Positions 36,968 to 63,948 of a stretch of 64,000 nt of DNA are shown piece by piece. The stretch comes from a virus (lineage: Duplodnaviria > Caudoviricetes): positions 34,117 through 98,116 of IMG/VR virus record IMGVR_UViG_3300029928_000005. The stretch is one strand, 5' to 3'. Both the position numbers and the translations under genes were made by a program. The notes beneath the pieces were generated by a model that was not told where the DNA came from, made no database searches, and worked only from the letters and a program-made list of their open reading frames with translations. Each line of letters starts with the position of its first letter. Position 1 is the first letter of the stretch.

Positions 36968-37543
36968 TTATTTATTAGTTCGTAAATCTTTTATTTTAAT
37001 TCTACCATAACCATCTTTTTCACCAGGTCTTCCATCATAAAGACCAATATAATTTTTAATAAATTCGCTATAATCTCCTTTAAATATAATATTATGATTA
37101 ATAATAAATATATCTTCTTCATCAGTATTAGCTATTATATTAGCTTTTACCACATTACAAATAGTATTTTTTAAAGTAGCTACTGTAAGACCTATAGTTT
37201 TAGCAGCTTTTTCTTTATCAATCTTTATAATATTACTATTGAATTTAAGAAGACCTATAATATAAAGAACTAATCTAATATCACTTCCATTAAGATTACA
37301 TATATGAAAATGAATATTTTCATTAACTCTTACAAAAGGAGTACTAACATAATTAGTAGTACAAACACTTATAATAGCATCATTTTGAAGTTTAGTATTA
37401 TACTCAACTTCTTTTTGAGTGATAGGTATTTCAAATATAGTTGGAACTATAGTTTGAGCTTTATCTTCAAAAGACCTATCAGCTTTTTCTCGAAATAGTT
37501 TTTTAAAATCTATTGTAGGCATACGTTTAATATTTATAAACAC
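36968..37543 (-). CDS. RepL-like winged-helix protein (copy 1)
   Basis: HTH (AAKTIGLTVATLKNTICNVVKANII) followed by FIINHNIIFKG, typical of the RepL family; start may be the ATG at 37522. Confidence 0.65.
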   Translation of the reverse strand: MFINIKRMPTIDFKKLFREKADRSFEDKAQTIVPTIFEIPITQKEVEYNTKLQNDAIISVCTTNYVSTPFVRVNENIHFHICNLNGSDIRLVLYIIGLLKFNSNIIKIDKEKAAKTIGLTVATLKNTICNVVKANIIANTDEEDIFIINHNIIFKGDYSEFIKNYIGLYDGRPGEKDGYGRIKIKDLRTNK

Positions 37544-37545
37544 TT

Positions 37546-37680
37546 AATTTGTCATGCTGGCAATGCTAAATTAGCCATTTTTGCCTTGATTTGTCATTCT
37601 CAGCATGACAAATTTTTTTTATAACATATTGATATTCAATGATTTATAAAAACAATAATAAATATCTATATAGATATATA
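37546..37680. promoter_or_regulatory. upstream module of RepL-1: palindromic operators, IHF-type site, AT palindrome
   Basis: TTGTCAT-N7-ATGCTAA (37549) and TTGTCAT-N7-ATGACAA (37591); WATCAANNNNTTR match on the - strand 37622-37634; TATCTATATAGATA near 37663. Confidence 0.6.
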
Positions 37681-37727
37681 AAACATTATCAATATCAATA
37701 TAAACAGTTCTACAATCTCTTTTAGCT

Positions 37728-37808
37728 AGACCCCCCGTAGAAGGAGAATGTTGAGCCATATCTACATATATAGCCTATGATACCATCCATTCCTCTACGG
37801 GGAATCTA
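37728..37808. repeat. inverted pair of CCCCGTAG motifs
   Basis: AGACCCCCCGTAGAAGGAGAATG ... CATTCCTCTACGGGGAATCT. Confidence 0.9.
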
Positions 37809-37820
37809 ACATTAAACATA

Positions 37821-38879
37821 TTAGCAATAAAGAAAATCAGCATCAAATGCTTTTTGAATCTTCTTTGCTTTATCACCATAAACAAGACTATCAAATCTCT
37901 TCATATTATCAACAGATGTATCAACATTACTAAGATAACCACTAACTGCATTAGCAGCTCCCCAAGCAGTACCCATATATTCAGCTTGACCTGGACCAGT
38001 ATGATAATATTCCCAAGTATCGGTAATCATATTAAGTTTACGACTACTTAACTTAAGACCTTCAACAGCCATCCAATTACGACCAATAATCATAGAATAA
38101 TCAATATTCATTTGAGCACGACGATTTTCTTCTTCTTCAGTCATAAATTGTTTACAAATATATTTCATAACGCCTTTATCAGACATCTTAATAATAGAAA
38201 GTCTTTCACATTCTTGTCCAAAATTAAAAGCAAATTTATGACTAATACCAAGAACTTCATTAGCTTGGTTAATTTTATTATGAATAGATTGAGTATGTCT
38301 AAAAGTTACAATATTATTAGCTCCTCGAATAGCAGCATTCAAAGTATTTTGACATATAACTCGAATAGGAGTAAATAATATTTTGACACCACTTGAACCA
38401 TCATGTGTATTAGTAAATACAAGATAAGTTTCAATAGGGTCTTTACCTTTTACAAGAATATTATCAGGAAGTTTAGCACTAACAAATATTCTTTCACCAT
38501 TACCAAATGCTCCAGCAGTTTGCCAAATAGCTTTATTTGCACCAATAGCTGCATCAAAGAAATTAAAAGCGTCTAAATTTTGAACAACAGTATATTTACT
38601 TTTTACATTACCAAGAGGTATATTATAATCAGTTCTATACGTAGCAAAACTATTAGGTACTTCACGATAAATATTACTTCCTTTGACAAAACCATCAGCT
38701 GCATTCATTCTATCAAGAGTATCATCAGATAAATCTTTAATAGGCATTTTAGCAACTATTTCACATTTAGCAACTTCAAAGTTAAGACCAGCCGTGAACA
38801 TAACTTCACGACTAGTCTTACAATGTTCAACATTTACACTACCTTTGGCTTCCCAAGGTTTACCTTTTACACTAAACAT
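37821..38879 (-). CDS. DUF932 family protein
   Basis: LG.V...Y.VVQN..AF.FFD, TAG....G..IF, NTHDGS, TPIRVICQNTL, GTAWGA.NAV. Confidence 0.85.
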   Translation of the reverse strand: MFSVKGKPWEAKGSVNVEHCKTSREVMFTAGLNFEVAKCEIVAKMPIKDLSDDTLDRMNAADGFVKGSNIYREVPNSFATYRTDYNIPLGNVKSKYTVVQNLDAFNFFDAAIGANKAIWQTAGAFGNGERIFVSAKLPDNILVKGKDPIETYLVFTNTHDGSSGVKILFTPIRVICQNTLNAAIRGANNIVTFRHTQSIHNKINQANEVLGISHKFAFNFGQECERLSIIKMSDKGVMKYICKQFMTEEEENRRAQMNIDYSMIIGRNWMAVEGLKLSSRKLNMITDTWEYYHTGPGQAEYMGTAWGAANAVSGYLSNVDTSVDNMKRFDSLVYGDKAKKIQKAFDADFLYC

Positions 38880-38880
38880 A

Positions 38881-39654
38881 TTATCTCATATTAATATATG
38901 GTTTAACAACAATACTTGCAACAGTTGGATTTATAATATTAGAATCAATCAATTCTTTAACCTCAATAGGATTAAGACAAGGTTTAGAATTAATAGCTTC
39001 ATCATTATCCAAACTTACTTGAAGTATTTCAACTTTGTCTCGTTTAATAAGATTAGCTATTTCAATACTAGCATTAAATTCAATTTTAACACAATATAAA
39101 TCATCTACTATAAAATCAGGGTCTTCTTCTTGAAGAAAACCATTTTCACGAGCATGTTTATTAATCCAATTAATAACATTATCGGGGTTAAAATCAAAAT
39201 CATCATAATCATTAATAAGGCAATCGTTATCATTAAGATAAGTAGCCCAATTTTTAAAACATTCTGCAAGAATTTGTAACCTATGTTCATCTACTTTAAG
39301 TCCTTTTCGATTAACAGTATAAAATTTAAAAGTATCGGTACTATAAGTTTTATTACCAGATTTACCATAATCTCCAAACTCTAATACAGCATTAAGAATA
39401 CTATTATTAAGTTTATCAACAATATTTCCTTTAGTCTTTTTAGCAGCTTGAAGACGTTTAATTTCATTAGAACACATTTCTTCTTGATATTTAAGAACAA
39501 GAATAGCTTTACGATAATTATCAAGTTTATCTTTCATTTCTTGTTCTTTAACTTCAAATTGTTGAAGTTGTTCATCAGTAACTTCACCACCTTGAACTTC
39601 AATATCTTCTATAATATTACGAAGTTCATTACTAATACTAAATAAATTATCCAT
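38881..39654 (-). CDS. siphovirus Gp157-like protein
   Basis: N-term LFSI..EL..I...IE..GGE and EIKRLQ..KK coiled coil. Confidence 0.65.
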   Translation of the reverse strand: MDNLFSISNELRNIIEDIEVQGGEVTDEQLQQFEVKEQEMKDKLDNYRKAILVLKYQEEMCSNEIKRLQAAKKTKGNIVDKLNNSILNAVLEFGDYGKSGNKTYSTDTFKFYTVNRKGLKVDEHRLQILAECFKNWATYLNDNDCLINDYDDFDFNPDNVINWINKHARENGFLQEEDPDFIVDDLYCVKIEFNASIEIANLIKRDKVEILQVSLDNDEAINSKPCLNPIEVKELIDSNIINPTVASIVVKPYINMR

Positions 39655-39838
39655 ATAGCTCTTTAATTTTATTAGTTACATGTTTAAACTCATTAACAGT
39701 AAGTTTTCTATTAAATCTAAAAATACCTAGTTTATAAAAAAAATGTCCAAGAGAAGTACGAACTTTTTTATTTGATTTACCATTATAAGTAATAATATCG
39801 TACTTCATCTTGAACCATTGTTTATTTATTTTGTTCAT
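39647..39838 (-). CDS. hypothetical protein
   Basis: Likely start MNKINKQWF within the 88-aa track ORF; overlaps both neighbours. Confidence 0.55.
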   Translation of the reverse strand: MNKINKQWFKMKYDIITYNGKSNKKVRTSLGHFFYKLGIFRFNRKLTVNEFKHVTNKIKELYG

Positions 39839-40055
39839 ACTTTTCATAATGAACACCTTTTTTATCAGGACGACAACGACATCGACATTCAAATTTGTCA
39901 GTAAACATATCACTTAAACAACCATGATATTTATTATCAAATATGCAAGATTGACAACTATATCTATCATTTTCAAAATCGTCTTCAACACATATTACAT
40001 CATATTTAAGAGCATTGCTACAAGCAACTTCTCCTACATTTAGAATTTTATTCGT
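39822..40055 (-). CDS. Cys-rich small protein with ACG (non-canonical or mutated) start; not in ORF track
   Basis: Open frame (M)NKILNVGEVAC..CVED..CQSC..C..CRCRCRPDKKGVHY.., 77 aa, filling the gap between neighbours. Confidence 0.5.
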   Translation of the reverse strand, partial: TNKILNVGEVACSNALKYDVICVEDDFENDRYSCQSCIFDNKYHGCLSDMFTDKFECRCRCRPDKKGVHYEKYEQNK

Positions 40056-40056
40056 A

Positions 40057-40233
40057 TTAATATCTATTAGACATTACAGGAACAACATGGTCTTTAAGTT
40101 TACCACAAGTCTTGCACTTACTTATTATATTAAGTGCTTCAACTTCACCACGAGTATTCTTTATTTCAACCTCTTTATAAGGTTCATAATTATGAATACC
40201 AAGAATACATTTAAAAGTTACTAAATCAGCCAT
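40057..40233 (-). CDS. small Zn-finger protein (58 aa; not in ORF track)
   Basis: MADLVTFKCILGIH...CKTCGK. Confidence 0.65.
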   Translation of the reverse strand: MADLVTFKCILGIHNYEPYKEVEIKNTRGEVEALNIISKCKTCGKLKDHVVPVMSNRY

Positions 40234-40236
40234 AAC

Positions 40237-41124
40237 TTATAATTCATATCCAAGTTCATTAATTTTATTTCTAATAATACCTGCCAAAATTTTGGCATTT
40301 TCATGAGATTTACCTGTAGTTCCATAATATCTTAAATTAATAATTCGTTTCCAAATATCAATAGGATAAGTATATACAACTACAGTTTTAGTATCTAATG
40401 GTAAAACACCACGAGCATCTTGTTTAGGTAATCCTAAAAGAACAAGTTCTTTATAATTAGTAAAACCTTCAATACAAGCCCAAACATATTTATAAAGAGG
40501 TTTATTATTATGAATCCATTCATTAGATAAAGAACTAGTAACATTAATAAATGTAGCATCTTCTGATTTCATCCAATGAGGTCTAACAATTTCACCTTCT
40601 TCATAACAATATCGAGTACTGCGTTCAACAATATTATTAGGACTAACACGATTAAATTCCCTACTAGTACTAATTTGAGTAACACATTTAAAAGTAAGCC
40701 AACAAAGTTGATAACCTAATTCAGTATTACTAAAATGTTCATAAGAAACTTCATATTCTTTTAGACATTCATAATATTTATAATGGTCTATAGCAAAATG
40801 ATGATTAAAATTTATATAAAAGTTATTATTATCACGAGCAACTCTAACATAAGGACTAACTTCATAAATTAAATAAAATTTATGAGCATCAACATTACTT
40901 CTAGGAACAATAAAATAATGAATCCAATGACGAAATACACTATAATGTCTAGAAGCGATAAGGCTTTTAATAAGAATATTATCTTTATCTAGACCCCCCG
41001 TAGAAGATGGATTGGAACCATCCACATCCTTACCATAACAAACTCTTGCTATATTAGCAATATGATTTATCATATCAAATCCATTCTGAAGTATAACTTC
41101 AGCTTTAGGTTCAATTATTTTCAT
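40237..41124 (-). CDS. thyX: flavin-dependent thymidylate synthase
   Basis: ARVCY, H.SVF.H, SREFNR....ERSTRYC, QDARGVLPL, LR...H. Confidence 0.85.
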   Translation of the reverse strand: MKIIEPKAEVILQNGFDMINHIANIARVCYGKDVDGSNPSSTGGLDKDNILIKSLIASRHYSVFRHWIHYFIVPRSNVDAHKFYLIYEVSPYVRVARDNNNFYINFNHHFAIDHYKYYECLKEYEVSYEHFSNTELGYQLCWLTFKCVTQISTSREFNRVSPNNIVERSTRYCYEEGEIVRPHWMKSEDATFINVTSSLSNEWIHNNKPLYKYVWACIEGFTNYKELVLLGLPKQDARGVLPLDTKTVVVYTYPIDIWKRIINLRYYGTTGKSHENAKILAGIIRNKINELGYEL

Positions 41125-41127
41125 AAC

Positions 41128-41316
41128 TTATCTAACTTTATCAGTAATTTCAATTTTATCAGTTTTAACTGTAGACCACATAAATTCTACTTCGTCCATC
41201 TCAAAACCATAATCACGAAGAAGATTTTCGATAACTTTATTTTCATCTTCTTCATCAACATCTATTCGATAGATTTTACCGTCATTATAATTAAGAACAT
41301 AAATATATTCTTTCAT
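41128..41316 (-). CDS. hypothetical protein
   Basis: 62-aa ORF coupled to both neighbours. Confidence 0.7.
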   Translation of the reverse strand: MKEYIYVLNYNDGKIYRIDVDEEDENKVIENLLRDYGFEMDEVEFMWSTVKTDKIEITDKVR

Positions 41317-42029
41317 AACTCTTGTTTTATAAATTCTAATACTCTATAAAATAAAGTCATAAGACTTCCATCATTATTAATTATAAAATCGTATTCAAAA
41401 TTAAGTTCTTCACTTGGATGATTATCTTTAGTAAGATTAGGACGTTCAACTTTAATAATAATACCTTCAGCATTATGAATAGCTTCAGATTCATTACCAA
41501 ATCTTACATCACTAATTAAACAATACTTATTCCTATTTCTAATTTTATTAGCTCTACGAATAGTATCTTCAATCCAAACTTCGTCATAAAGTTGATTACG
41601 ACCAATTTCAGTACCAAACCATTGCATTAAAGTTCTAAGTTTAATACAAGCATTAGTATTCATATATTGATTAAGACCAAAATTAGTATTAATCATTTGA
41701 TTATGAATAATAGTTGTATGTTCTCTTTGAGCAGTTTCAATAGTTACAAATTGTCTTTCTTTTAAATAAAAATATAAAGTATCTTTATAAGCTCTAGAAT
41801 CAAAACATTCTCGTTTAATGCCAAATAATCTACTTAGAATATCTTTAATACCATCAGCAAAACCAATAGTTTGTTTTTTATAAATAGTATTATTAATACC
41901 ATTTACAATCCATTTATTATAATCTACTTTCATAATACCATTTCTCATAATATAATCAATGATATTACAAACTGTATCTTTACCACTATTGCGTAATCCA
42001 GATACACCTATTAATAAATCCTTTTTCAT
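41313..42029 (-). CDS. deoxynucleoside monophosphate kinase
   Basis: Walker A GLRNSGKDT, FAD..K, R.LMQ.FGTE.GR, ISDVRF.NE, H.SE. Confidence 0.9.
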   Translation of the reverse strand: MKKDLLIGVSGLRNSGKDTVCNIIDYIMRNGIMKVDYNKWIVNGINNTIYKKQTIGFADGIKDILSRLFGIKRECFDSRAYKDTLYFYLKERQFVTIETAQREHTTIIHNQMINTNFGLNQYMNTNACIKLRTLMQWFGTEIGRNQLYDEVWIEDTIRRANKIRNRNKYCLISDVRFGNESEAIHNAEGIIIKVERPNLTKDNHPSEELNFEYDFIINNDGSLMTLFYRVLEFIKQEL

Positions 42030-42107
42030 TACTTACTTTATTTGTTTATTTAAATATATAATTAATATATTAGAAACCAATAATTTTTTTTTAGTATTTT
42101 AAGCCCA

Positions 42108-42193
42108 TTTGAGACATTCAAATTAAAAATGGATAGATTGTTCATGTTAATACTAAAAATGCCACAGAACGAACGAGAAGTGCCAAATTTGGC
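42108..42193 (-). repeat. bipartite ~90-bp dispersed element (TTTRAGAC..ATT / GTGCCAAATTTG)
   Basis: 42173-42193 is the exact reverse complement of 8402-8422; similar copy at 58404-58491. Confidence 0.75.
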
Positions 42194-42217
42194 AAGTCCG
42201 ACCATAAATTAGTCCAT

Positions 42218-42250
42218 GAAAAAGCCCAACCACCAAATTGATGATTGGGC
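42218..42250 (-). terminator. intrinsic terminator
   Basis: GCCCAA...TTGGGC stem with U-tract on the - strand. Confidence 0.6.
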
Positions 42251-42259
42251 ATGACCAAC

Positions 42260-42604
42260 TTATTCAATACTATAAACATCATAATCATCATTAGCTTCAA
42301 CATTAGTAAAAACAAAATTAGTTCTATCACTATATTGAAAATAATGTTTATGACCAATAGGACAAATCTTATATCGTCCAAAGTCGTCATAATCTAAACG
42401 ACGACATTCATTATGAAACTTAGTATTACCAAAAGCAATAAATCTATCATAATCTTGAATATCTGGATTAAACTTTTGAAGTTCTACAAAATATTTATAT
42501 CCGGTAGGTAGTTCTCGACTATAAAGAATATTCTTTTTAGCATCATACCAAGTTCCAGCTTTAGATACTTTTATTTTAATTACATCATAACCAATAATAC
42601 ACAT
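42260..42604 (-). CDS. hypothetical protein
   Basis: 114-aa ORF in operon. Confidence 0.75.
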   Translation of the reverse strand: MCIIGYDVIKIKVSKAGTWYDAKKNILYSRELPTGYKYFVELQKFNPDIQDYDRFIAFGNTKFHNECRRLDYDDFGRYKICPIGHKHYFQYSDRTNFVFTNVEANDDYDVYSIE

Positions 42605-42612
42605 TTAATTAA

Positions 42613-43827
42613 TTATTCTATTAGTTTTACTTCCTTTACATGGAAGGGAACACGTCTTATTCCCGAACGCTCCCCATACGTTAGATATATCATCTTCCCT
42701 ATATACTTTTCTTTATTTTCTAATATATCAGCTTGACGACTAGTTGTATAACTAAATCTAGTTTCAAATAATTCATCATTAATATCATTACGACAAAGAA
42801 TAATTGGAAGATAACGACTCTTTTCAGGATAAATATTTACTATTTGAAAATTACCTTCATGTACATCTTTATACTTGACCATATATCCAGCACGTCTCTT
42901 ACCAAATTGATAATCGACATCCGGATTTCTAAGAATAACTCCTTCAAAACCAGCATTAATAAATTGATTACGATATTCAGTAGCTTTATCTTTATTATCT
43001 ACTTCATAAATAGGAAGAACATTAAATAAATTTTGATTATTAATATGTCTATCATAATCAATATTTTCTTTAATTCTAAATCCTTCTAAAACAGTATATA
43101 GATAATTAAATCTAGTTTCTTGACTAGAATCAGGAATAATCAAATCATAACACCAATATTGAAGAAGTTTATTTTGAATACAATTAGGGTCTTTGACAAA
43201 ATGGTCAATAGCATTTACACTATGACCAGGTAAATATATTTCTCCATCTAAAGCCCAACCATCATTAATCATGTGATTAATAATATTAGTTGGAAGATAT
43301 TGAAACATAAAACTAGCAAGAGTATCTAATGTATGCCAAAATGTACCTTCACGACTTTGAAAAGTAAATTTATAAGGACTAAACATATCATCAGCAGGAA
43401 TAGCACGAATAATACATCTTAGACCATTAATCTTCCATTGACCATAATAAAGAGGAACTTTCTTAAAAGTATTTTTATCAAAAGCCTTAGCAAGCATAGG
43501 AAGAAGAAGACCATTAGCGTCATATCTATCATGTTCAAGATAAGTATTAAGCCAATTATAGAGAATTGGGTCATCTCCTTCTCCTACGGGGGGTCTAAAA
43601 TTATCATCCTTGATTTCATCAATAGGTCTATAACCTGTTTTACGTTTATCATTATATCTACTTTTAATTTCAGCATTAGCATCTTTTAGTTTAACAGGAT
43701 ATTTTTCAGTAAGAATTTTACCTCCAACATTTCCATATTGAACTATAATTTTACCATCAGCATCAATAAAAGCTCGCCATTTACAAGGCTTACCAATATT
43801 ATTTCGTCTATATAACCATTCGTTCAT
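42613..43827 (-). CDS. lig: ATP-dependent DNA ligase
   Basis: PMLA, QWKINGLRC (motif I), LDGEIY, EGVILR, VKYK; WGR-like N-terminus. Confidence 0.9.
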   Translation of the reverse strand: MNEWLYRRNNIGKPCKWRAFIDADGKIIVQYGNVGGKILTEKYPVKLKDANAEIKSRYNDKRKTGYRPIDEIKDDNFRPPVGEGDDPILYNWLNTYLEHDRYDANGLLLPMLAKAFDKNTFKKVPLYYGQWKINGLRCIIRAIPADDMFSPYKFTFQSREGTFWHTLDTLASFMFQYLPTNIINHMINDGWALDGEIYLPGHSVNAIDHFVKDPNCIQNKLLQYWCYDLIIPDSSQETRFNYLYTVLEGFRIKENIDYDRHINNQNLFNVLPIYEVDNKDKATEYRNQFINAGFEGVILRNPDVDYQFGKRRAGYMVKYKDVHEGNFQIVNIYPEKSRYLPIILCRNDINDELFETRFSYTTSRQADILENKEKYIGKMIYLTYGERSGIRRVPFHVKEVKLIE

Positions 43828-44306
43828 ATCTTAATAATAACATTATCTTTAGTTAATATTCTAGTAGCTTTAGGCTTAGCTTCTCGTTTCTTTTTAGTAA
43901 CAATAGGTTCAATAATTTCAGCACCAGTAATTAAATCTCTAGACTTAATACTTGTAGCTATTCTCTTACCCCCCGTAGAAGGAGAATTCTTAGCTCCTTT
44001 CTTCTTAGTATAAATAACAGGAGGATTATCTTTTTCAAATTCTAAGTTAGTAATATGTCTTTGTTCAAGTTTTCCTCTATATAAATTACATTGTTCAACA
44101 GTAACAAAATTATTATCAATAGCCATATTAAGAATCTTATTAAATGCTTCCATTAAAAAATTATATCTATAATTAATAGTTTGCATAATTCTTCCAATAG
44201 GAGTTATTTTTGTACAATCTAATTCATTTAGAATATTATCAAGAACTTGAAAATAAGATTTACCAATAAGCCAACTTTCAACTAGTTTTTCTTCATTTTT
44301 GTCCAT
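43824..44306 (-). CDS. hypothetical protein
   Basis: Start reassigned to MDKNEEK. Confidence 0.75.
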   Translation of the reverse strand: MDKNEEKLVESWLIGKSYFQVLDNILNELDCTKITPIGRIMQTINYRYNFLMEAFNKILNMAIDNNFVTVEQCNLYRGKLEQRHITNLEFEKDNPPVIYTKKKGAKNSPSTGGKRIATSIKSRDLITGAEIIEPIVTKKKREAKPKATRILTKDNVIIKI

Positions 44307-44736
44307 AAGGATAAATTTGTTGTCGATAAATAATAACTCTTTTAGGACGACCAACTAATGTATAAGCATAATCCCATACAAGTAAAGGATTAGTACTAAA
44401 TATAAAAGTAGGAGGTTTAATAACTTTATATTGTTCATTTATATTAGAATGAATACAAGTTCCATTTTCATTTACCAGATTAAATCTGATAATAGCTCTA
44501 GCATCTTCTTCATTAGAAGAATTTACTTCTCCATAACAGTATATGGAATCTTTTGACACATTAAGAATATCATCTTCAACAACAAGATTAATACTTTTTT
44601 CGTCATCAAGCTTTTCTTCTTGTTTTTCAGTAATACTTTGCATATAAACATTATAATATTTACCATTATGTTTAATACGGCAAAGAACTGTTCGAGACCT
44701 TATCCCTAATAGATTGATTATGTCTTTCTCGTTCAT
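44293..44736 (-). CDS. hypothetical protein
   Basis: 147-aa ORF in operon. Confidence 0.75.
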   Translation of the reverse strand: MNEKDIINLLGIRSRTVLCRIKHNGKYYNVYMQSITEKQEEKLDDEKSINLVVEDDILNVSKDSIYCYGEVNSSNEEDARAIIRFNLVNENGTCIHSNINEQYKVIKPPTFIFSTNPLLVWDYAYTLVGRPKRVIIYRQQIYPYGQK

Positions 44737-45853: not shown

Positions 45854-45875
45854 TGAAAATCAATCATTTGATATT

Positions 45876-45909: not shown

Positions 45910-45994
45910 CATGTAAACAAATGCGCTAATACTCTGAAAATGATTGATTTAATTGGCACAAACTGTAAGCATCAGCATTAGCAACATTTATAAC

Positions 45995-49127: not shown

Positions 49128-49184
49128 ATTTCAAAGACCTCTTGTTTGATTATTACACTACAAATATAATACATTATTTTAAAT

Positions 49185-55366: not shown

Positions 55367-55823
55367 TTGAATTTTCTTTAAGTTCTCTTAGATTAATAAG
55401 ATATTCGAGCCATTCTTTAGTAGCATCTCGAACTTCTTCAACACAACTTAAGTTATACACTTTAATAATATGAAAAACAATTTCATTTCTTATTTGTATA
55501 ACTTTACCTTTGCAAACTAATCCGGGTGCAAATGGAAGATAAAAACGATTATCCATCTCAATTCTATGGTCAATATCTCGTATAATTTTAATATGATGAC
55601 CATATTCATCAAGTTTTTTAAGATAAACCTCTTTCTTACCTTTACATTTATAACAATCAGGATTTATATTATATATTTTATCTTCACAAAATACAAAATA
55701 AATTCCATCTTGTCTGCACCTTATAATACCTTCAGCATTATCTTTAATAACTTCTGGTACTAGTCTAGGTTTTCTGTTTTTAATCTTAAGCCAAGGATTA
55801 AATACAGGTGGTTTAATAGACAT
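55359..55823 (-). CDS. hypothetical protein
   Basis: 154-aa ORF in operon. Confidence 0.75.
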   Translation of the reverse strand: MSIKPPVFNPWLKIKNRKPRLVPEVIKDNAEGIIRCRQDGIYFVFCEDKIYNINPDCYKCKGKKEVYLKKLDEYGHHIKIIRDIDHRIEMDNRFYLPFAPGLVCKGKVIQIRNEIVFHIIKVYNLSCVEEVRDATKEWLEYLINLRELKENSNG

Positions 55824-55831
55824 AACATAAC

Positions 55832-56161
55832 TTACTTAACTTTGTTAAACTTCTTCTTAAACACCTGCTTTACGTCCTTAGCAATCTTAATTTGATTAGC
55901 TTGTTTAGTTTCTTTCTTAGCTTTCTTTTTACTAACAACTTCATCAGTATTAGCATTTGTTGGACGCTTAACTGATTTCTCATTAGCAAAATACATTACA
56001 TAGCCACAATAATGAACAAGAAAATCAATCTTGCCATAAGTGCCATTACCAACTAGAGGAGAATCTTTCTTTACAAAAATAGATTTATTACCCTCATTAA
56101 CATTCACATCTCTGTTCTTTTTAAGCGCATGAACAGTACTCGCTTCATCACGATTTCTCAT
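55832..56161 (-). CDS. basic hypothetical protein
   Basis: 109 aa; VGNGTYGKIDFLVHYCGY, Lys-rich tail. Confidence 0.8.
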   Translation of the reverse strand: MRNRDEASTVHALKKNRDVNVNEGNKSIFVKKDSPLVGNGTYGKIDFLVHYCGYVMYFANEKSVKRPTNANTDEVVSKKKAKKETKQANQIKIAKDVKQVFKKKFNKVK

Positions 56162-56186
56162 TTTACGCGAATTTTTAATTAAACAT

Positions 56187-56699
56187 TTAGTTATTTATAT
56201 CATCAACAGAAAAACTGTCGATTTCTTCTTTTATTTGTTTATTATTTAAACCAAGAATATCAGCATAAGTGTTTAGGTCATTACAATACATTTGCCAACT
56301 ACCTATATAGCCAAATTCTTTAAAATTATAAACATAATTACCACGAAGATGTTTACCTTCATTATTTTTTAAAGGTATAATAGCATTTCGTTTAATAAGT
56401 TCAGCCTTAACTTTATTAAGACTAGAAAGAGAAAGAGGATTATCTTTATCTAGCCAATTAGCAAAATTAATCATTGATTCATTGCCTAAATAAATAATAT
56501 ATCTTCCTTCATCATCTTCTTTTCGCTTAGATATTACTTCTTGAATATAACGAAATAAATCATTAGCGTTAGAACTAAGTCCTCTTAATTTATGTGCATA
56601 AATCATACTCTTAACTCTTTTACGTCTATCATTTATATCATTTGTAATACCTCTACGATAATCTATTTTAATAGGTCTATTTATAAATATACTACCCAT
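56187..56699 (-). CDS. RepL-like winged-helix protein (copy 2, divergent)
   Basis: LSSNA.DLF.YI, HTH LSLSSLNKVKAELIKRNAI, GNYVYN; start likely MGSIF. Confidence 0.5.
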   Translation of the reverse strand: MGSIFINRPIKIDYRRGITNDINDRRKRVKSMIYAHKLRGLSSNANDLFRYIQEVISKRKEDDEGRYIIYLGNESMINFANWLDKDNPLSLSSLNKVKAELIKRNAIIPLKNNEGKHLRGNYVYNFKEFGYIGSWQMYCNDLNTYADILGLNNKQIKEEIDSFSVDDINN

Positions 56700-56703
56700 A
56701 ATT

Positions 56704-56950
56704 ATATCGTTATTTGATAGCAAAGATATAATTTTTCGATATATGAACTATCGAATTACGATATTAATTTTGCTTTTTAACTATCGTATGGCGATAGCAA
56801 ATATACGAATTTTATTTTATAAACGCCTGATTCTCAAATATGATTTTTTCAGCTGCTATCGTGTGATGATAGCAATTTTTGAATCTAAAATGTTGATTAT
56901 CAAATAATTATCTCGAAAAAAGTGCTCGAAAGTAAGTATATAATAGTCTC
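56704..56950. promoter_or_regulatory. upstream module of RepL-2: four CTATCG-N5-CGATAG-type palindromes, two TAnnTTTG boxes, IHF-type site
   Basis: Palindromes near 56704, 56748, 56781 and 56856; TAnnTTTG on the - strand at 56721-56728 and 56798-56805; TATCAAATAATTA 56898-56910. Confidence 0.7.
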
Positions 56951-57019
56951 CAGCAAGCTATATACATATATTAACAATTATATTGTTTAAACACCATCAT
57001 CAAAACTCCTTCAGCAATT

Positions 57020-57360
57020 TTATCTTTCAATATTATATAATTCTTCAATAGCATTTTTAATTAGATTACCATCAATAGTTAATATAGTATTATTATAACT
57101 ATCAGTAACTAAAAGTTGTTTATTACGATTTACAGGATTAATTGTACAATCATAATAATAATTATTGCTCTTAACTCTAATAGTAAATTGTTGATAATCT
57201 TCACAATCAGGATTATAACTTACTACATAATAAACAGCTTTAATAGATAGAATTTCTTTCTACCTAAAACAAATATTTATTCATTTTCAATAGTACAAAT
57301 AGTTTTGCCACCATCAGTATTTATATCAATACTTATTTTAATATTACTTTTAATATTCAT
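57020..57360 (-). pseudogene. disrupted ORF ending NAIEELYNIER
   Basis: ATG at 57360 followed by an early TAA, a frame change and an in-frame TAG; 57022-57055 is identical to 57843-57876. Confidence 0.55.
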
Positions 57361-57392
57361 TTTATTAATTGTTTAATGATTAATACTAATAG

Positions 57393-57533
57393 GCTCGGCT
57401 TCGCCTCGCCGACCCCCCGTAGGAGAATGATTGGAGCCAGCATATCTAGCTATATCCATAACATAAGCTATAGTATCAGGATTGGCTTAATCATCTCCTT
57501 CTACGGGGAATATGCGCAGGACGAAGTCCGAGC
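57393..57533. repeat. ~140-bp imperfect inverted repeat containing a CCCCGTAG pair
   Basis: GCTCGGCTTCGCCTCGC..CCCCCCGTAGGAGAATGATT ... AATCATCTCCTTCTACGGGG..GCGCAGGACGAAGTCCGAGC. Confidence 0.9.
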
Positions 57534-57607
57534 ACTTATACATTACTACAATCAGCAATGTATAAATGTGTTCTACGGTCATTAACATGACCTTGAACAA
57601 AACTAGT

Positions 57608-57844
57608 TTAATGTTTCTTATTCTTAACTAAATCACGATACATTTTAGCAGCTTTCTCTGTATTATGATTAACAAATTGACTTTGTTTAATCTTAATATA
57701 ACATTGAAAACCATTATCAATAAATGTAATTGCAATACCTTTATCTTCTTCAATTACATTATCGATAATTGCTAATCTACCATTATCAGCAAGAATAATA
57801 TCATTGCGACGAACAACGTCTTGTTGTTTACTGTACTGTATCAT
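57608..57844 (-). CDS. hypothetical protein
   Basis: 78-aa ORF, ATGA overlap with the upstream gene. Confidence 0.7.
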   Translation of the reverse strand: MIQYSKQQDVVRRNDIILADNGRLAIIDNVIEEDKGIAITFIDNGFQCYIKIKQSQFVNHNTEKAAKMYRDLVKNKKH

Positions 57845-58311
57845 CTTTCAATATTATATAATTCTTCAATAGCATTCATAATTTCAATAATCTCACGTTC
57901 GTTAAGATTATCAATAGTTTTACCTGTATCAAAATTAGCAGCAATATAATTTGTTACTGTTTGAAGAGGACAAACAATATGATTACTTATATTATCAGTA
58001 ATAATAACAGGTTCATCAACATTAAATTCGTTCTTTTTTAATGCAAAAATTCTTACGATTTTATATTCTCGTCCAGCTTTAATAATATCTTTAATATGAC
58101 TATCAATATAATTATTAATACTTTCGACATTCATACCTTGATTTGATAATTCATTAAGAAAATCAAAATCATATATTTTATCAAGAGTATCTCTTGATAA
58201 AACAATCTTAAAACGATTAGTAGCAATAGTTATTTGCTGTTTAGCAGCCCAATAATCTACACAATACTTATCAGTTTTAAGACAAGTATCACAATAATTT
58301 TTAGTTTCCAT
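57841..58311 (-). CDS. hypothetical protein
   Basis: Start reassigned to METKNYCDTC. Confidence 0.75.
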   Translation of the reverse strand: METKNYCDTCLKTDKYCVDYWAAKQQITIATNRFKIVLSRDTLDKIYDFDFLNELSNQGMNVESINNYIDSHIKDIIKAGREYKIVRIFALKKNEFNVDEPVIITDNISNHIVCPLQTVTNYIAANFDTGKTIDNLNEREIIEIMNAIEELYNIER

Positions 58312-58586
58312 TTTTAAATCTTCTATATTTATATTAGTTGAACAATTAATTAATTCAAAAGTATTACTCACAACAGCTGTTATGAGATTTTCAAATTAGC
58401 TTGTTTAAGACATTATTTTTAATCGAGTGGATGAACTTATCATTTCAAAAAAGATAATGCCTCTAGCAAGCTAGAATGTGCCAAATTTGACACATAGACG
58501 TATATCGAACCATGTACACGCACGCACATACATAATAAGATATGAAGAACATCAATAGCATTATGAATAATACTATTATAAACAAC

Positions 58587-58620
58587 AAAACCGCTACTAC
58601 TTTCATAAGCAATAGCGGTT
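58587..58620 (-). terminator. intrinsic terminator
   Basis: AACCGCTA...TAGCGGTT with U-tract on the - strand. Confidence 0.65.
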
Positions 58621-58736
58621 ATAAAATAATATTACGTTTGGATTAAAATGTTGATGATTATTATCATTATCTATTATTAGTAATAGTACTGCGAGTTTCA
58701 CAACTGGCAGTACTAACATCATGAATGATAAAAAAA

Positions 58737-59174
58737 CTACTTATTGTTTTCTTTAATATATTTAATAAGTTCTTCTTTAGTCATACTTTCAAGATTAGGT
58801 TTAGTTTCATAATGTTCAAAAGAATTATATATTTTATAACTCAATTTACCTAAACTAGTATCAACTTCATGAACTAATTCGTCTCTACGTTCATGAAGAG
58901 CATTAAAGAACTTCTTAAGAGTTTCTTCAGTAATACCTGTTTCTTTAATAATTTCTCTTAATTCATCAGATTCAAAATTAACAATGAAATTAGCATATTC
59001 AGAAATAGTACAGATACATTTAACATCTTCTTGAAGATGAGATTTAAAATCTTTACAATCTTCTTTACTGTCTTCAACTAATATCTTAAACATATTAGTA
59101 AGAATAGTTTTATTACTAGGTTTGTTCTTTTCAATAATTGATTCTAATGTTTCAATTAATTTGTTTATTTCCAT
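58737..59174 (-). CDS. hypothetical protein
   Basis: Start reassigned to MEINKLIE; C-term LESMTKEELIKYI. Confidence 0.75.
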   Translation of the reverse strand: MEINKLIETLESIIEKNKPSNKTILTNMFKILVEDSKEDCKDFKSHLQEDVKCICTISEYANFIVNFESDELREIIKETGITEETLKKFFNALHERRDELVHEVDTSLGKLSYKIYNSFEHYETKPNLESMTKEELIKYIKENNK

Positions 59175-59187
59175 TTTATTTATTATT

Positions 59188-59337
59188 TTAATTGTTATAA
59201 CCAAATATATCTTCATCATCAAAAGAATCATCAACTGTTTCTGGTTCCCAACCAACATTATCAAAATCTTCATCTAATAATTCACTATGAATATCAATAG
59301 TTTCAATATCCATATAATCATCACTAAATTCTGACAT
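59188..59337 (-). CDS. very acidic 49-aa peptide (not in ORF track)
   Basis: MSEFSDDYMDIETIDIHSELLDEDFDNVGWEPETVDDSFDDEDIFGYNN; 19 D/E and no K/R. Confidence 0.65.
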   Translation of the reverse strand: MSEFSDDYMDIETIDIHSELLDEDFDNVGWEPETVDDSFDDEDIFGYNN

Positions 59338-59442
59338 AATGATTATGATTATGATAAATAGTAGCTGGCTTAGTTCCTCCTTTTATGGGGAATCTAACAC
59401 CAACTACATTACTACAATTAATATATATAGAAGATTAAGAAT

Positions 59443-59913
59443 TTACATTACATTGTCATTAATTTCTTTTTCTTCTTTAGATTCTTCTACAGTATTACCA
59501 TTTATTTCATTATCATTATCATTGTTGGTAACACCATCAACAATTTTATTTTCTTCTAAAATAAATGTTTCAATAGTTTTTTGACTATCTTCAGCGAAAC
59601 TCTTGAATGCACCTACAAGAGCATTAATAAAAAATTGTTCTCGATAAGTATATTCACGTTTAAGACCATTAACAACAAGACTGAATTTATTCCAATCAGT
59701 AAAATCAATATATCTGTCTTTATCAATTTCAGGATTTACAATACCTTGTTGAATAAAATAATTCATAATATTTAGAGCTGTATGACGACGAACACCATGA
59801 TTAAAATGAATAATCATACTAAGCTCAACAACATGATTAGGAATATTAAAAGGAATTTTAAATTTTCTACGAATACTAGATTCAATCTTACCTTTAGCAT
59901 TATTTATTTTCAT
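59443..59913 (-). CDS. hypothetical protein
   Basis: 156-aa ORF with a host-type promoter upstream. Confidence 0.75.
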   Translation of the reverse strand: MKINNAKGKIESSIRRKFKIPFNIPNHVVELSMIIHFNHGVRRHTALNIMNYFIQQGIVNPEIDKDRYIDFTDWNKFSLVVNGLKREYTYREQFFINALVGAFKSFAEDSQKTIETFILEENKIVDGVTNNDNDNEINGNTVEESKEEKEINDNVM

Positions 59914-59947
59914 AACTACAACATATATTTAAACATTAATACTATGA

Positions 59948-59978
59948 CAAATATAACATATAATTACGAAAATGCAAA
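59948..59978 (-). promoter_or_regulatory. Bacteroidota primary-sigma promoter
   Basis: TTTG-N19-TATATTTG, 35 nt upstream of the ATG at 59913. Confidence 0.7.
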
Positions 59979-60178
59979 TACTAATGAATATTTTTATTCG
60001 GTATTGCTGTAATTATTGCTATTAGGTCATGTTCTCAAATGTTAATTGCATGAATAATAAATATAATAACATAATGATTTATTATTATATTATGCTTATC
60101 AATACTATTAAATTTATATTAAACAGTTTCATAAGTAATGTGGATATTACTATCCACACTACTTATATTGCTATATCA

Positions 60179-60886
60179 TTATCCCATGTGAGATTTAAAC
60201 ATATCTTTAATCATACTTCGTTTCGCATCACGAATATCTTCATTAGTTTCACCATTAACTCTAATAGCGATAATATGATTAATAAATGTGTCATTACTCA
60301 TTTTAGTCTCATTATTACGAGTACTAAAAGGATTATGATATAATTGACCAGCTTTTACAGGCTGACTAACTACATCAATAGTAGCACCAGCCATAATAGC
60401 TTCAAACACCTTGGCATTTTCTACAAGAGAATTACCAATCCATGCAATAGATTCAGTGTTTTTAATAACACCGCCTAATGCGAAATTAGAACTAAAGATA
60501 ATGTTTCTAGTTCCTTCTTTAAACACTCCGTTAGAATCAGCAACCATAGCACGAATAGGTCTATTTATAGTCAAATTGACCATAAAATAATTCTCCATTT
60601 CAGTAACTTTTGCAGTCTTTACTTTAAGATTACGATAATATTCATTACCGTCAGCTTTAATAAGACTTTGAACAATAGTTTCATAAGTGCTTGGTTCTTC
60701 AGGATTAGCATTATCTGCTTCATCCTCATTCTTTTCTGCTGCTTCTAATTCAGCATTATCTGCTTCATTCTTAGCCTTTTCCTTTTCTGCTTCTAATTCA
60801 GCATTTACTAATTTAGTAGCTTCTTCTACTGATAAACCTGTTGCTACTATTTCTGCAATTCTTGCTTGAACTTCTTGTGCGTTCAT
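60179..60886 (-). CDS. hypothetical protein with acidic N-terminal linker
   Basis: Start reassigned to MNAQEVQ. Confidence 0.8.
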   Translation of the reverse strand: MNAQEVQARIAEIVATGLSVEEATKLVNAELEAEKEKAKNEADNAELEAAEKNEDEADNANPEEPSTYETIVQSLIKADGNEYYRNLKVKTAKVTEMENYFMVNLTINRPIRAMVADSNGVFKEGTRNIIFSSNFALGGVIKNTESIAWIGNSLVENAKVFEAIMAGATIDVVSQPVKAGQLYHNPFSTRNNETKMSNDTFINHIIAIRVNGETNEDIRDAKRSMIKDMFKSHMG

Positions 60887-60990
60887 GTCTAAGTCTCCTA
60901 TTACTATCATCATTAGTAGGAATGATGATGTTTTATGTTTATAATATTTATAATTGGATAGATAACACCTACTTATCATCTATCCAATAT

Positions 60991-61012
60991 TTATATTGAT
61001 TATGAGTGAGTT
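60991..61012 (-). promoter_or_regulatory. candidate phage-specific promoter (copy 1)
   Basis: TTATATTGATTATGAGTGAGTT; near-identical copies at 61972 and 62668. Confidence 0.6.
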
Positions 61013-61018
61013 CTAAAC

Positions 61019-61056
61019 AAAAATAGTATTATTAGAAATAAATCTAATAATACTAT
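61019..61056 (-). terminator. AT-rich terminator-like hairpin
   Basis: ATAGTATTATTAGA-aataaa-TCTAATAATACTAT with U-tract on the - strand. Confidence 0.5.
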
Positions 61057-61062
61057 AAATAA

Positions 61063-61227
61063 TCATATATGTGCTATTAATTGAATTAATATCAACAATC
61101 CAAATGATGATAATAATAATTTAGCACATAATTTACCTTTTTCGTCTAAAGCTGCTGCAATTAATGCAGCAAATTCTGTTAAACCCATAATTATGGACAG
61201 GATTATGAGAATGATATTTATAATCAT
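61063..61227 (-). CDS. small membrane protein (54 aa; not in ORF track)
   Basis: MIINIILIILSIIMGLTEFAALIAAALDEKGKLCAKLLLSSFGLLILIQLIAHI. Confidence 0.5.
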   Translation of the reverse strand: MIINIILIILSIIMGLTEFAALIAAALDEKGKLCAKLLLSSFGLLILIQLIAHI

Positions 61228-61593
61228 GATTCTACTAATTTTAATACATGTTCTCCATATAAATATAGAACTATCATAATTGTAATTATTAGTTATTGTG
61301 ATGATGAAGAAAGAGATGATGCTGATAACAAATCAGGTACTATCCAAGTCTTTATGTTTTATTATTGATTATAGTAGGATAATGGATAAGGAATAAAATT
61401 AAAATGAATGTTGTAGGAATGGTATATGGAGATAAAAGTGATGATGGAACTAATGCTCCGCATCCTTTTCACATTACAGCTAAACATTCATATATTATTC
61501 CTTATCATTATCCTTATTCTATTATTAATCCTATTGGAGACGAAGTCGACGCTTGACGTGTTTGTCATGTTACAACTTTATCTCCTAATATTA

Positions 61594-61890
61594 TTAATCT
61601 TCTAACTTAAACTTATGAAGACCATTAACAATATTGTTAATGATGTCCATAGTTATGCTAATTTTCATTCTGCTTGCTATTAGAGTATTCTTAATCCTTC
61701 TTATCGGAAGGTTTGCTTTAAGGATACGAATAGCCTTATTATAATCAACATTTGTATAAATGCCAATTATAATATCTTCTCCATTACATTTCATCCATAC
61801 ATTATCATATCTTTTGATAATGTATTTTCTGCTGATGCCATCTATATTGAAAGCAACAGCGTTCTTGTAAAAACAACATGTTTGTTTCAT
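61594..61890 (-). CDS. hypothetical protein
   Basis: ATG start MKQTCC, downstream of the candidate promoter at 61972. Confidence 0.55.
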   Translation of the reverse strand: MKQTCCFYKNAVAFNIDGISRKYIIKRYDNVWMKCNGEDIIIGIYTNVDYNKAIRILKANLPIRRIKNTLIASRMKISITMDIINNIVNGLHKFKLED

Positions 61891-61971
61891 TGCCAAATAA
61901 TATTTGCCGGATTAATATTATCATTATGACCGTGCCGGCTTTAATCATAATGATTATCATTCATGCGAAAT

Positions 61972-61993
61972 TTATATTGATTATGGGTGAGTT
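61972..61993 (-). promoter_or_regulatory. candidate phage-specific promoter (copy 2)
   Basis: TTATATTGATTATGGGTGAGTT. Confidence 0.6.
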
Positions 61994-62046
61994 ATTTGTT
62001 TTGGAAGTAGGAACAGCCCATTTTTAGACTGTCCCTTTTCCATGAC

Positions 62047-62565
62047 TTAAAGTTCTATACCGAACTTCTTCGCCGTCATCTTAATCATAAAGTCGCTGTA
62101 GTTCTTTTCTGCTACATAGTCCATAAATATTAAGAAAATTTCATCTTCAGGAATAGCAAGACGAACATTACTAAAACTATAATTAATAGTTTTAGTAACT
62201 TCTCCTGTTTCTTTGTTAGTTTTTTTCCCTTCTGTTGCTTCAATATCGACAACAGCTCCACGAAGCCATTGTCTACATTGCTCAATGTTATTGTCTACAT
62301 TATTTAATCTATCTTCTAGAATAGCTCTTGTTGGAAATTGTTCTAATCCAGTATGTACCAATTTTTGTAGTACAACATTATATATTGATAGTTCAGATTT
62401 AGTGCTAACATTATAATTACCAGCATCATCTTTGACAATACCAGTAACAGCAGCATTAAGATGAAGCAAAGACTTATCGTTATCGACAATAAGCTCAGAT
62501 TTACCATTAACCATTACAGACTTGTAAGCATTAGTAACTTTAGAAATAACTGTTGTTGTTGCCAT
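62047..62565 (-). CDS. hypothetical protein
   Basis: Start reassigned to MATTTVIS. Confidence 0.8.
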   Translation of the reverse strand: MATTTVISKVTNAYKSVMVNGKSELIVDNDKSLLHLNAAVTGIVKDDAGNYNVSTKSELSIYNVVLQKLVHTGLEQFPTRAILEDRLNNVDNNIEQCRQWLRGAVVDIEATEGKKTNKETGEVTKTINYSFSNVRLAIPEDEIFLIFMDYVAEKNYSDFMIKMTAKKFGIEL

Positions 62566-62667
62566 AATGATAGATACTGTGTCCTTAACACAGAGTAGTA
62601 CTATTAATAACAAGTAGAGAAACACTACTATATTCTCTGCTACCAATGTATTCTACATTGGCAAGAA

Positions 62668-62689
62668 TTGTATTAATTATGGGTGAGTT
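62668..62689 (-). promoter_or_regulatory. candidate phage-specific promoter (copy 3)
   Basis: TTGTATTAATTATGGGTGAGTT. Confidence 0.6.
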
Positions 62690-62904
62690 AATATTATCAG
62701 CAGTTTCAATAGCGGGGGTATGTCAATCAGTTCCGCAATGCCGGGGGGCATCGCTCCGTAGCTCCCCCATCTCACTAATATACACCAAAAACACCTATAT
62801 CCTTTCTATCATTTACATCATTATTTACTTTATCTTCATATTCATTTACAATTTCTACTTATTTATCATCTTTATTTTTTTTATTATATCATCCCATTCA
62901 TTTC

Positions 62905-63687
62905 TTATATCTTTATCACATATCCATTTTTATCAATAATAGTTACTTTACTTCTTTTTCTATCTTTTCTTCCTTTTACTTCTTCAACCATTTCGTTATT
63001 TAATTTAAGAACATCACATTTATTTTCTTCATAATTATTATCTTGTTCTACAATATTATCTATTTCTTCAACTTCTTTAGCATACATACTTTTATCTACA
63101 TAAAGAGTTCCTTCAATATCATTTTTATCTTTAAATACTTTATATTTATCTATAACAACTATATTGTTTTTTGTAACAATAGTATTTTTAAGTTCATATT
63201 CTATTCTTTTATTATATGTAAGAAGATTTCCTTTATAAATATATAATGGATTTACACAATAAAGTCTTTGTATATTAGTTTTACGAATAACATCATTTGC
63301 TATTAAAACTTTAATAGTATTATAATAATCTCTATTACTAATTTCTTTTCCTAAACAACCTTTTATTCTTTCAATACTAAGTTTTATCCAATTACTATCA
63401 AATTCAATTTTAGCAGCTATATAACCACAAATTCTATAAAAATGAAGATTATCAACTTTATTCATAATATCCCAAAGACTATCTCCTATAAGATTAAAAG
63501 AATGTTTAAGTCTAAAAGGTTGAATAATTTTAGTTCCATCATATAAAATTCCTCTTACGGTTTCTGTATCTTCTAAAGTAACAGGAAATGGATTGGGAAT
63601 ATTTAATTTAATATTCGGATTATTACCAGAACCAACAAGTTCGATAGTTTCATTTAAACTTTTAACAAAATTATAATGCGTACTCAT
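62905..63687 (-). CDS. RepL-like winged-helix protein (copy 3)
   Basis: YYNTIKVLIANDVIRKT...LYCVNPLYIYKG, the RepL-type C-terminal motif. Confidence 0.65.
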   Translation of the reverse strand: MSTHYNFVKSLNETIELVGSGNNPNIKLNIPNPFPVTLEDTETVRGILYDGTKIIQPFRLKHSFNLIGDSLWDIMNKVDNLHFYRICGYIAAKIEFDSNWIKLSIERIKGCLGKEISNRDYYNTIKVLIANDVIRKTNIQRLYCVNPLYIYKGNLLTYNKRIEYELKNTIVTKNNIVVIDKYKVFKDKNDIEGTLYVDKSMYAKEVEEIDNIVEQDNNYEENKCDVLKLNNEMVEEVKGRKDRKRSKVTIIDKNGYVIKI

Positions 63688-63698
63688 AACAAAATGAC

Positions 63699-63835
63699 TT
63701 TTTAGTATATTAATTGGTATAAATATATCAATATTATTGATTTTTAGTACCCAATTCGGTAATTATTTTTTATTTTATCTATTTGATTATCAATAAGTTA
63801 CAACTTTTCCTTTCTTATATATAATATATAAATCA
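63699..63835. promoter_or_regulatory. upstream module of RepL-3: repeats, IHF-type site, AT tract
   Basis: TTTTTAGTA...AATT(C)GGTA at 63699 and 63741; TATCAATAAGTTA 63788-63800; TATATATAATATATA near 63817. Confidence 0.55.
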
Positions 63836-63885
63836 TAGATTTATTGCTATCTATATAATCAATATCATTCTTTCTAATATGTACA

Positions 63886-63948
63886 CTCCCCGTAGGAGAA
63901 TGATGGATGGCTATAGCTTGCTCAATATCTCCTCCTACAGGGAATCTA
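63886..63948. repeat. inverted pair of CCCCGTAG-type motifs
   Basis: CTCCCCGTAGGAGAATGAT ... ATCTCCTCCTACAGGGAATCT. Confidence 0.85.

Follow-up and report, generated by a model that had tools for sequence, protein, structure and literature searches.

Plasmid origins of the pSC101 theta type combine a DnaA box, an integration host factor (IHF) site in an AT-rich region, iterons, inverted-repeat operators and the repA gene. In the REP modules of the pHW126 family (pIGMS31, pIGRK and pHW126) the Rep protein, distantly related to the pSN2-type RepL, is a winged helix-turn-helix (wHTH) protein serving as both initiator and autorepressor, and related replicons of the family are mutually compatible (10.1101/2022.12.05.519187). 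RepL-driven replication in phage P1, which has more than one initiator gene, requires an AT-rich region (PMC9948254). Closest to the present subject is Carjivirus communis, in which gp88 and gp43 are annotated as RepL and an origin has been predicted upstream of gp88 by Ori-Finder and long-read coverage (Schmidtke et al., PMC10983915); operators, a shared core or cassette exchange are not described there. It is not settled how the prototype crAssphage group persists; the two RepL genes and the predicted origin have led to the proposal of a phage-plasmid lifestyle. Here, three winged-helix genes and their upstream regions are analysed in a window of 64,000 nucleotides (bases 34117-98116) of the 98,116-bp virus record IMGVR_UViG_3300029928_000005, which is a crAss-like phage within Crudevirinae, distinct from C. 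communis. Coordinates are window positions unless stated otherwise, M1, M2 and M3 denote the regions upstream of genes 1, 2 and 3, and L-numbers denote the related genomes and loci compared.

A sequence-only reading of this window had described the three modules as sharing one order of elements, and this was borne out. Read in the direction of transcription, each module consists of a long hairpin, an AT-rich palindromic tract together with an IHF-like core, private repeats and the winged-helix gene, and the conserved block of AT tract and core is independent of which protein follows. The chances appear about even that each module is a self-contained rep cassette of the RepL-plasmid type with an autoregulated promoter, its origin activity being putative. 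In such a cassette the winged-helix protein would act as a dimer that binds the private repeats and represses the promoter of its gene, the DNA at the core would be bent by an architectural protein of host or phage, and the protein-DNA complex beside the AT tract would open the DNA and act as a replication origin. The hairpin would be a single-strand initiation or insulating element, and the three cassettes would be mutually orthogonal, as replicons or as control units. The strongest origin candidate is M3, which lies where the two gene arms diverge.

The shared core, TTGATWWTCAA, was found as claimed in all three modules, each time overlapping a match to WATCAANNNNTTR. It occurs at five loci in the window, compared to about one expected, and three of the five lie inside the modules; extended by NNNNTTR, it has four matches, all within the three modules, versus 0.04 expected from shuffles. 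Pattern searches place the M1 core, TTGAATATCAA followed by NNNNTTA and resembling the IHF consensus, at 37622-37639 (minus strand), the M2 core, with NNNNTTA on both strands, at 56886-56910, and the M3 core, again with NNNNTTA, at 63783-63800. The part most conserved across relatives, ATCAA-N4-TTA, equals the E. coli IHF consensus. A match to WATCAANNNNTTR occurs, in one orientation or the other, in each of the three modules and in almost all relatives; the consensus is that of E. coli, and Bacteroidales IHF/HU proteins may or may not read it. The M3 core is inverted relative to the identical element preceding C. communis gp88. This inversion, together with the conservation of ATCAA-N4-TTA, fits a site of protein-induced bending better than a promoter hexamer. 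Also considered, and dropped, was a sigma-70-like -35 hexamer with AAAAAT as a -10 box 17 nt downstream, since the ATCAA-N4-TTA half is all that relatives retain and the M3 element is inverted. In all modules compared, the distance from the core to the first private repeat is fixed at 17 nt, or at 20 nt in the M3 type. Upstream of a gene-2-type homologue in L051 (2255-2415) there are three core copies, spaced by 58 and 88 bp, which suggests that a shared factor may be recruitable in arrays.

Beyond each core there is a TATATA-rich tract, in agreement with the earlier description. In M1 this tract (37655-37685, located by repeat finding) contains a perfect 14-bp palindrome at 37663-37676, which also precedes the RepL genes of L001, L006 and L009 as well as C. 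communis gp88. The M2 tract spans 56936-56975 and that of M3 63812-63835, the latter with more copies past the hairpin and over the contig junction.

The same element order stands beside homologues in other genomes, where the type of repeat follows the type of protein and the core is kept, as would be expected if each protein reads its own operator. In L001, L003 and L010, the gene 3 proteins of which are 69-86% identical to that studied here, the hairpin arms, TATATA tract, core block and two protein sites are kept. The M3 modules of L001 and L003 carry a perfect TATATTTG fused with the proximal site, and L010, with the most divergent gene 3 protein, has different private sites. The M1 arrangement recurs in L006-L009, and L001 has an altered dyad and a perfect TATATTTG box. 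The M2 operators are conserved in L003, and distant gene-2 homologues (34-43% identity) have core elements and dyads of their own, one of them with three core copies. In C. communis, gp88 is preceded by a hairpin, a GC-rich bit, an AT palindrome, the core and two 27-bp direct repeats, and gp43 by a hairpin, an inserted small gene, an AT tract, the core, private repeats and a perfect TATATTTG; within the 38.5 kb scanned (1-36000 and 94500-97065, replication arm) the core occurs only at these two RepL genes. The same layout is found ahead of the gene-3 homologue in Delmidovirus. In another genus (L012-L019), whose DUF932 protein is about 50% identical, a RepL-like gene lies inverted close to where the arms converge; it has the same AT tract and core, and two alternative operator types match two protein variants. 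This comparative anatomy, in which the repeats co-vary with the protein against a constant core, is the strongest evidence. Repeats of other kinds were also noted: three to four copies of a ~19-bp repeat without core lie upstream of gp09 in the early region of C. communis (L048, 4280-4600), and a tandem 9-bp repeat array lies upstream of a RepL-type module at the end of the Delmidovirus cr110_1 record (L050, 1-60).

The gene-specific repeats, with the first two of each set about 42-44 bp apart, were all recovered, and each gene was found to have operator candidates of its own, as none of the three sets has other good matches across the whole 98-kb genome. Repeat finding and pattern searches give two 7-N7-7 dyads 42 bp apart in M1 (37549-37611, minus strand), the one at 37549-37569 imperfect with two mismatches and the one at 37591-37611 perfect, with a -7-like box, TAATTTAG (minus strand, 37566-37573), overlapping the proximal dyad. 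M2 has four 17-bp dyads of the form 6-N5-6 (56704-56872, minus strand; at 56704, 56748, 56781 and 56856), versus 0.92 matches expected in the window, and two perfect TAnnTTTG boxes (56721-56728 and 56798-56805, minus strand), each adjoining a dyad. The two M3 sites, at 63699 and 63741 (63699-63761, minus strand), are likewise 42 bp apart, the proximal one being fused with a -7-like box (63720-63727, minus strand). A spacing of 42 bp, or four turns, places the sites on the same face of the helix. Promoters of the Bacteroides primary sigma factor consist of a -33 TTTG and a -7 TAnnTTTG element; the M1 and M3 boxes have one mismatch here and are perfect in relatives, and the -33 elements are weak. 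On the sense strand, TATATTTG has four intergenic copies compared to about one expected from the intergenic share of the genome, an approximately four-fold excess. As the operators bracket or adjoin the -7 box, autoregulation is indicated, and self-repression by each protein, which is very probable, is the most secure functional inference. The earlier reading had likened the layout to iteron-containing origins; the sites are mostly dyads at the -7 box and thus look operator-like rather than like iteron arrays. Elsewhere in the genome, strong candidates for Bacteroides-type promoters with the extended TGTWTTATATTTGT motif are found at window positions 49161 and 59948 and at genome position 9731, in each case 32-35 nt upstream of the start codon of another gene.

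The description of all three genes as RepL-like wHTH genes holds for gene 1, by its Pfam match, and for gene 3, through gene 1, but for gene 2 in fold only, so that all three proteins are winged-helix or RepL-linked. Gene 1 (36968-37522, minus strand) encodes a RepL-type winged-helix protein of 184 aa from the ATG at 37522, which is a more likely start than the GTG at 37543. Among the three proteins it alone matches Pfam RepL, PF05732, above threshold (E 5.6e-7, 29.6-30.1 bits, gathering cut-off 20.3), the match being limited to the wHTH core (profile positions 55-126 of 164), and it is 28% identical to C. communis gp43. Gene 3 (62905-63687, minus strand) encodes a diverged RepL-type protein of 260 aa, recognised by homology to gene 1 (BLASTP E 3e-6, hhalign E 1.4e-4) and to C. 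communis gp88, annotated as RepL (34-37% identity). It has no direct match to Pfam RepL; its nearest Atlas cluster is 100% RepL (score 0.96). The AlphaFold2 model of gene 3, with a predicted local distance difference test score (pLDDT) of 38, is too poor for a structure search and shows the wHTH secondary-structure pattern at low confidence. A PHROGs search assigned no family to any of the three proteins.

Gene 2 (56187-56699, minus strand) encodes a winged-helix protein of 170 aa, for which a Pfam scan including six homologues gave no match. Its AlphaFold2 model (pLDDT 76) has the wHTH order of secondary structure, an H1-S1-H2-H3-S2-S3 fold with helices at residues 43-57, 73-83 and 91-103 and strands at 68-70, 107-111 and 117-124. 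The best neighbours in VIA-align are the winged-helix domains of ORC2/Cdc6 (Z 8.0-8.7), many winged-helix domains reach Z 7-8.7, and the staphylococcal RepA initiator 4pta (MDR) scores Z 7.4, tied with many regulators. Structural neighbours in the Atlas are chiefly RepA_N clusters (TM ~0.45-0.5), fold matches also include MarR, BlaI and Fur types, Foldseek returned weak winged-helix rows only, and a profile search of PDB sequences found nothing meaningful. Judged from the model, gene 2 is related to RepL at fold-class level only. It is predicted to form a symmetric homodimer with an ipSAE of 0.77 compared to 0.05 for the best control, at least 92% agreement of contacts between runs and a partner pLDDT of at least 77; the mark used for this score is reached by 20 of 30 solved same-chain pairs and by one of 23 single chains. 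The predicted dimer is consistent with the dyad form of the operators.

The inverted CCCCGTAG pairs reported for the modules are present, but the word itself is found genome-wide and one M3 partner carries a mismatch. The M1 hairpin (37727-37808, minus strand, arms at 37733 and 37795; -41.2 kcal/mol, z -5.65) follows directly after the DUF932 stop codon. The M2 hairpin (57393-57533, minus strand; -42.2 kcal/mol, z -3.97) has its CCCCGTAG arms at 57415 and 57501. The M3 hairpin (63882-63948, minus strand; -31.9 kcal/mol, z -5.19) lies in the divergent intergenic region between the gene arms, with one arm at 63888 and a partner at ~63933 reading CCCTGTAG, one mismatch away. The M2 hairpin had been considered as displaced by a pseudogene, and a frameshifted small gene is indeed found between it and the rest of the module (56990-57376, minus strand), intact with 124-125 aa in L003 and L007 (124 aa in L003). 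In all, CCCCGTAG has 24 copies in the window, compared to 0.07 expected, and 35 genome-wide, mostly intragenic, in both orientations and at least four reading frames, about every 3 kb and with conserved flanks. Each hairpin pair thus consists of two copies of a dispersed element, rather than being a signal specific to the modules. Examples of the word are found at 7181, 10451/10489, 16730/16768, 23233 and 43584, and C. communis also has CCCCGTRG copies.

The hairpins are stable and no T run follows them, so that they do not qualify as intrinsic terminators, and searches for tRNA and Rfam families revealed none that explains them. The wobble pair formed by the arm variants falls on the sense strand in one case, whereas in other genomes it is the antisense strand that has it, and in L003 both arms of the M3 hairpin carry a matching C-to-T / G-to-A change. 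An RNA structure of one strand was considered and found less likely than a DNA-level word, because the wobble pairs fall on different strands between genomes. Short GC-rich mini-hairpins flank the M2 hairpin (57393-57414 and 57509-57533), at which place L006, L009 and L010 carry a different GC-rich insert. The left mini-hairpin is found again, along with the dispersed word, at ~1060-1088.

Several observations weigh against rep cassettes with origin activity. An iteron origin would show at least three direct repeats and a DnaA box; M1 and M3 have two sites each in operator-like placement and no iteron array, and M2 has four dyads. No perfect DnaA box was found in the whole genome, the near-matches not being clustered at the modules, and no repeats were found inside genes 1-3. 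The exact TAnnTTTG shows no overall enrichment in intergenic DNA. The hairpin arms copy a genome-wide word, and the analogous hairpin of L014 is an ordinary one which is followed by a T run and fits a terminator. Gene 2 has no significant sequence similarity to genes 1 and 3, and tblastn against plasmids gave no match for gene 1 and none of significance for gene 3 (best E ~0.7-1). Helicase and PolB are encoded by the phage itself, which may not need plasmid-type initiators.

A plausible if rather doubtful alternative is that the modules are purely transcriptional units, insulated autoregulated promoters in which the winged-helix repressor would set the level of its own gene and the downstream operon (helicase-PolB in the case of gene 2), with no origin. 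The hairpin would then block read-through, the core would be an architectural or activator site, and swaps would alter regulatory specificity, comparable to the lambdoid immunity regions. The dyads do flank or adjoin -7 boxes at four-turn spacing, the next gene starts within 13-26 nt after genes 1 and 2, and a distant genus has a terminator-like hairpin at the position of the CCCCGTAG hairpin. Winged-helix proteins are usually transcription factors, as the matches to MarR, BlaI and Fur folds recall, and the lack of a DnaA box and an iteron array likewise agrees with this account. The origin reading is nevertheless favoured, because the conserved protein-independent block of hairpin, AT tract and core exceeds what an autoregulated promoter needs and its element order matches that of the RepL-related replicons of the pHW126 family. 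It is favoured also because the sites are private to their own gene, leaving a regulator with no other targets, and because the RepL gene of C. communis (gp43) and that of the L014 genus each form a monocistronic unit at an arm end and so head no operon. The M3 hairpin, furthermore, has no co-directional upstream gene to terminate, and M3 is situated at the arm divergence, where the C. communis origin is predicted and coverage peaks, which again argues for an origin.

The cassettes have apparently been exchanged at one variable slot upstream of a conserved block encoding a 109-aa protein, a 154-aa protein, helicase and PolB. This slot is occupied by the gene-2 type in the genome studied here and in L003, L004, L051 and L053, by the gene-1 type in L001 and L006-L009, and in L010 by a fourth winged-helix type with three GTGGC-N6-GCCAC dyads. 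The gene-1 type has three locations: the helicase slot, the arm end in C. communis and, in the present genome, the gap separating DUF932 from dUTPase. The left arm of the M1 hairpin shares ~25 nt with the slot hairpin of L009, so that the hairpin may travel with its cassette, as this likeness suggests. A further reading, which we regard as unlikely, goes beyond the rep cassettes and holds that the three are orthogonal phage-plasmid replicons, with hairpin, AT tract and core as a subfamily-wide scaffold served by one architectural protein and with the private repeats setting incompatibility. Exchange and relocation of cassettes would then, with the same low likelihood, stem from selection on crAss strains that reside together, either to be compatible or to exclude one another. 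If true, this would offer a genetic basis for long-term carriage by a phage group long regarded as lytic.

The hairpin, AT tract and core could also be start signals for the virion-packaged RNA polymerase, as in the hairpin promoters of coliphage N4, so that the genes would be those expressed earliest; this is very improbable. Three long hairpins with conserved arms do lie upstream of three early-arm genes, and early genes are transcribed by the virion RNA polymerase of crAss-like phages, for the assay of which denatured phage DNA served as template (10.1101/2020.03.07.982082). The same work, however, reports no common motif upstream of early transcripts, and the 35 copies of the hairpin word lie in both orientations and mostly within genes. 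The hairpins are, moreover, at least ~190 nt from the start codons, a small gene may intervene, and the other genus has a plain hairpin and then a T run. Chance resemblance in AT-rich intergenic DNA, which might be suspected in a genome of ~27% GC where short AT-rich words recur and the 14-bp palindrome, when two mismatches are allowed, is not above chance within the window, has practically no likelihood left, being already refuted by the shuffles, with four extended-core matches in the modules versus 0.04 expected, and by the conservation of order and spacing across genera in at least four lineages.

As to the genome as a whole, plus-strand genes extend up to ~34 kb and include a giant open reading frame of 4441 aa of the RNA polymerase type, and the replication arm consists of minus-strand genes from 34 to 64 kb. 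Gene 3 is the leading gene of this arm, gene 2 leads the block preceding the helicase and PolB genes, and the gene 1 cassette lies between the DUF932 and dUTPase genes. The contig terminates inside the divergent intergenic region (window 63950-64000, onward into genome bases 1 to ~115) and has an extra copy of a ~35-bp TATA-rich unit at the junction relative to L001. As the record ends without overlap, it was linearised within this region. No match to the HU/IHF Pfam family was found in the phage genome. An 8-kb megablast against phage records gave no match because the genome is strongly diverged from C. communis, a viral-contig search with gene 3 as query found no relatives, and a metagenome scan with the DUF932 neighbour found relatives at ~50% identity only, the flanks of which end short of the RepL module. 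Mobile endonuclease insertions differ between relatives: the helicase gene of L006 is split by an I-HmuI-like open reading frame (5392-8082), L003 has an additional HNH gene in the structural arm (4266-5042), and the dUTPase of C. communis (gp34/gp35) carries an intron.

The scaffold precedes every RepL-type gene examined in at least four Crudevirinae lineages, by which the phage-plasmid proposal gains defined DNA parts. If the cassettes replicate, they would provide Bacteroidales genetics with orthogonal replicons ready for use and would give access to the compatibility of crAss strains; if they do no more than autoregulate, they would be small repressor-operator pairs orthogonal to each other. 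In both cases the limits of the elements to be cloned are now defined.

Compared to the known systems, the modules resemble the pSC101 type in the succession of an IHF-like site, an AT tract, repeats specific to the Rep protein and an autoregulated rep gene, and differ in lacking a DnaA box, in having few repeats, which overlap the promoter, and in a Rep protein that is not of the RepA/Rep_3 kind. Phage P1 is likewise a phage-plasmid with more than one initiator gene; its oriL is postulated within repL, whereas no repeats were found inside genes 1-3. With the pHW126 family the modules have in common the order of ssi-like palindrome, conserved region, Rep repeats and, immediately ahead of the rep gene, inverted-repeat operator. 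The plasmids of that family have four 20-bp direct repeats, whereas each module has two to four sites, which are dyads for the most part. Gene 3 shows no significant similarity to the Reps of these plasmids (E ~0.7-1), and the modules belong to a 98-kb phage equipped with a replisome of its own.

The likeness to C. communis is closest. Gene 3 corresponds to gp88 in position as well as by homology, gene 1 is homologous to gp43, both C. communis genes are likewise preceded by hairpin, AT tract, core and private repeats, and the module of the first gene is situated at the arm divergence in both phages. The differences concern the identity of 28-37%, the gene-1-type cassette, found at the arm end in C. 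communis and between DUF932 and dUTPase here, and the third, non-RepL winged-helix cassette of the phage studied here. The RepL pair, the origin upstream of the first gene and the idea of crAssphage as a phage-plasmid are already published (PMC10983915), and the layout extends what is suspected for crAssphage and is not a new kind of system. New, as far as checked, are the third, non-RepL cassette, the scaffold shared across genera, the fixed core-to-repeat spacing, the IHF-like half-site as the conserved unit and the at least three specificities in one slot.

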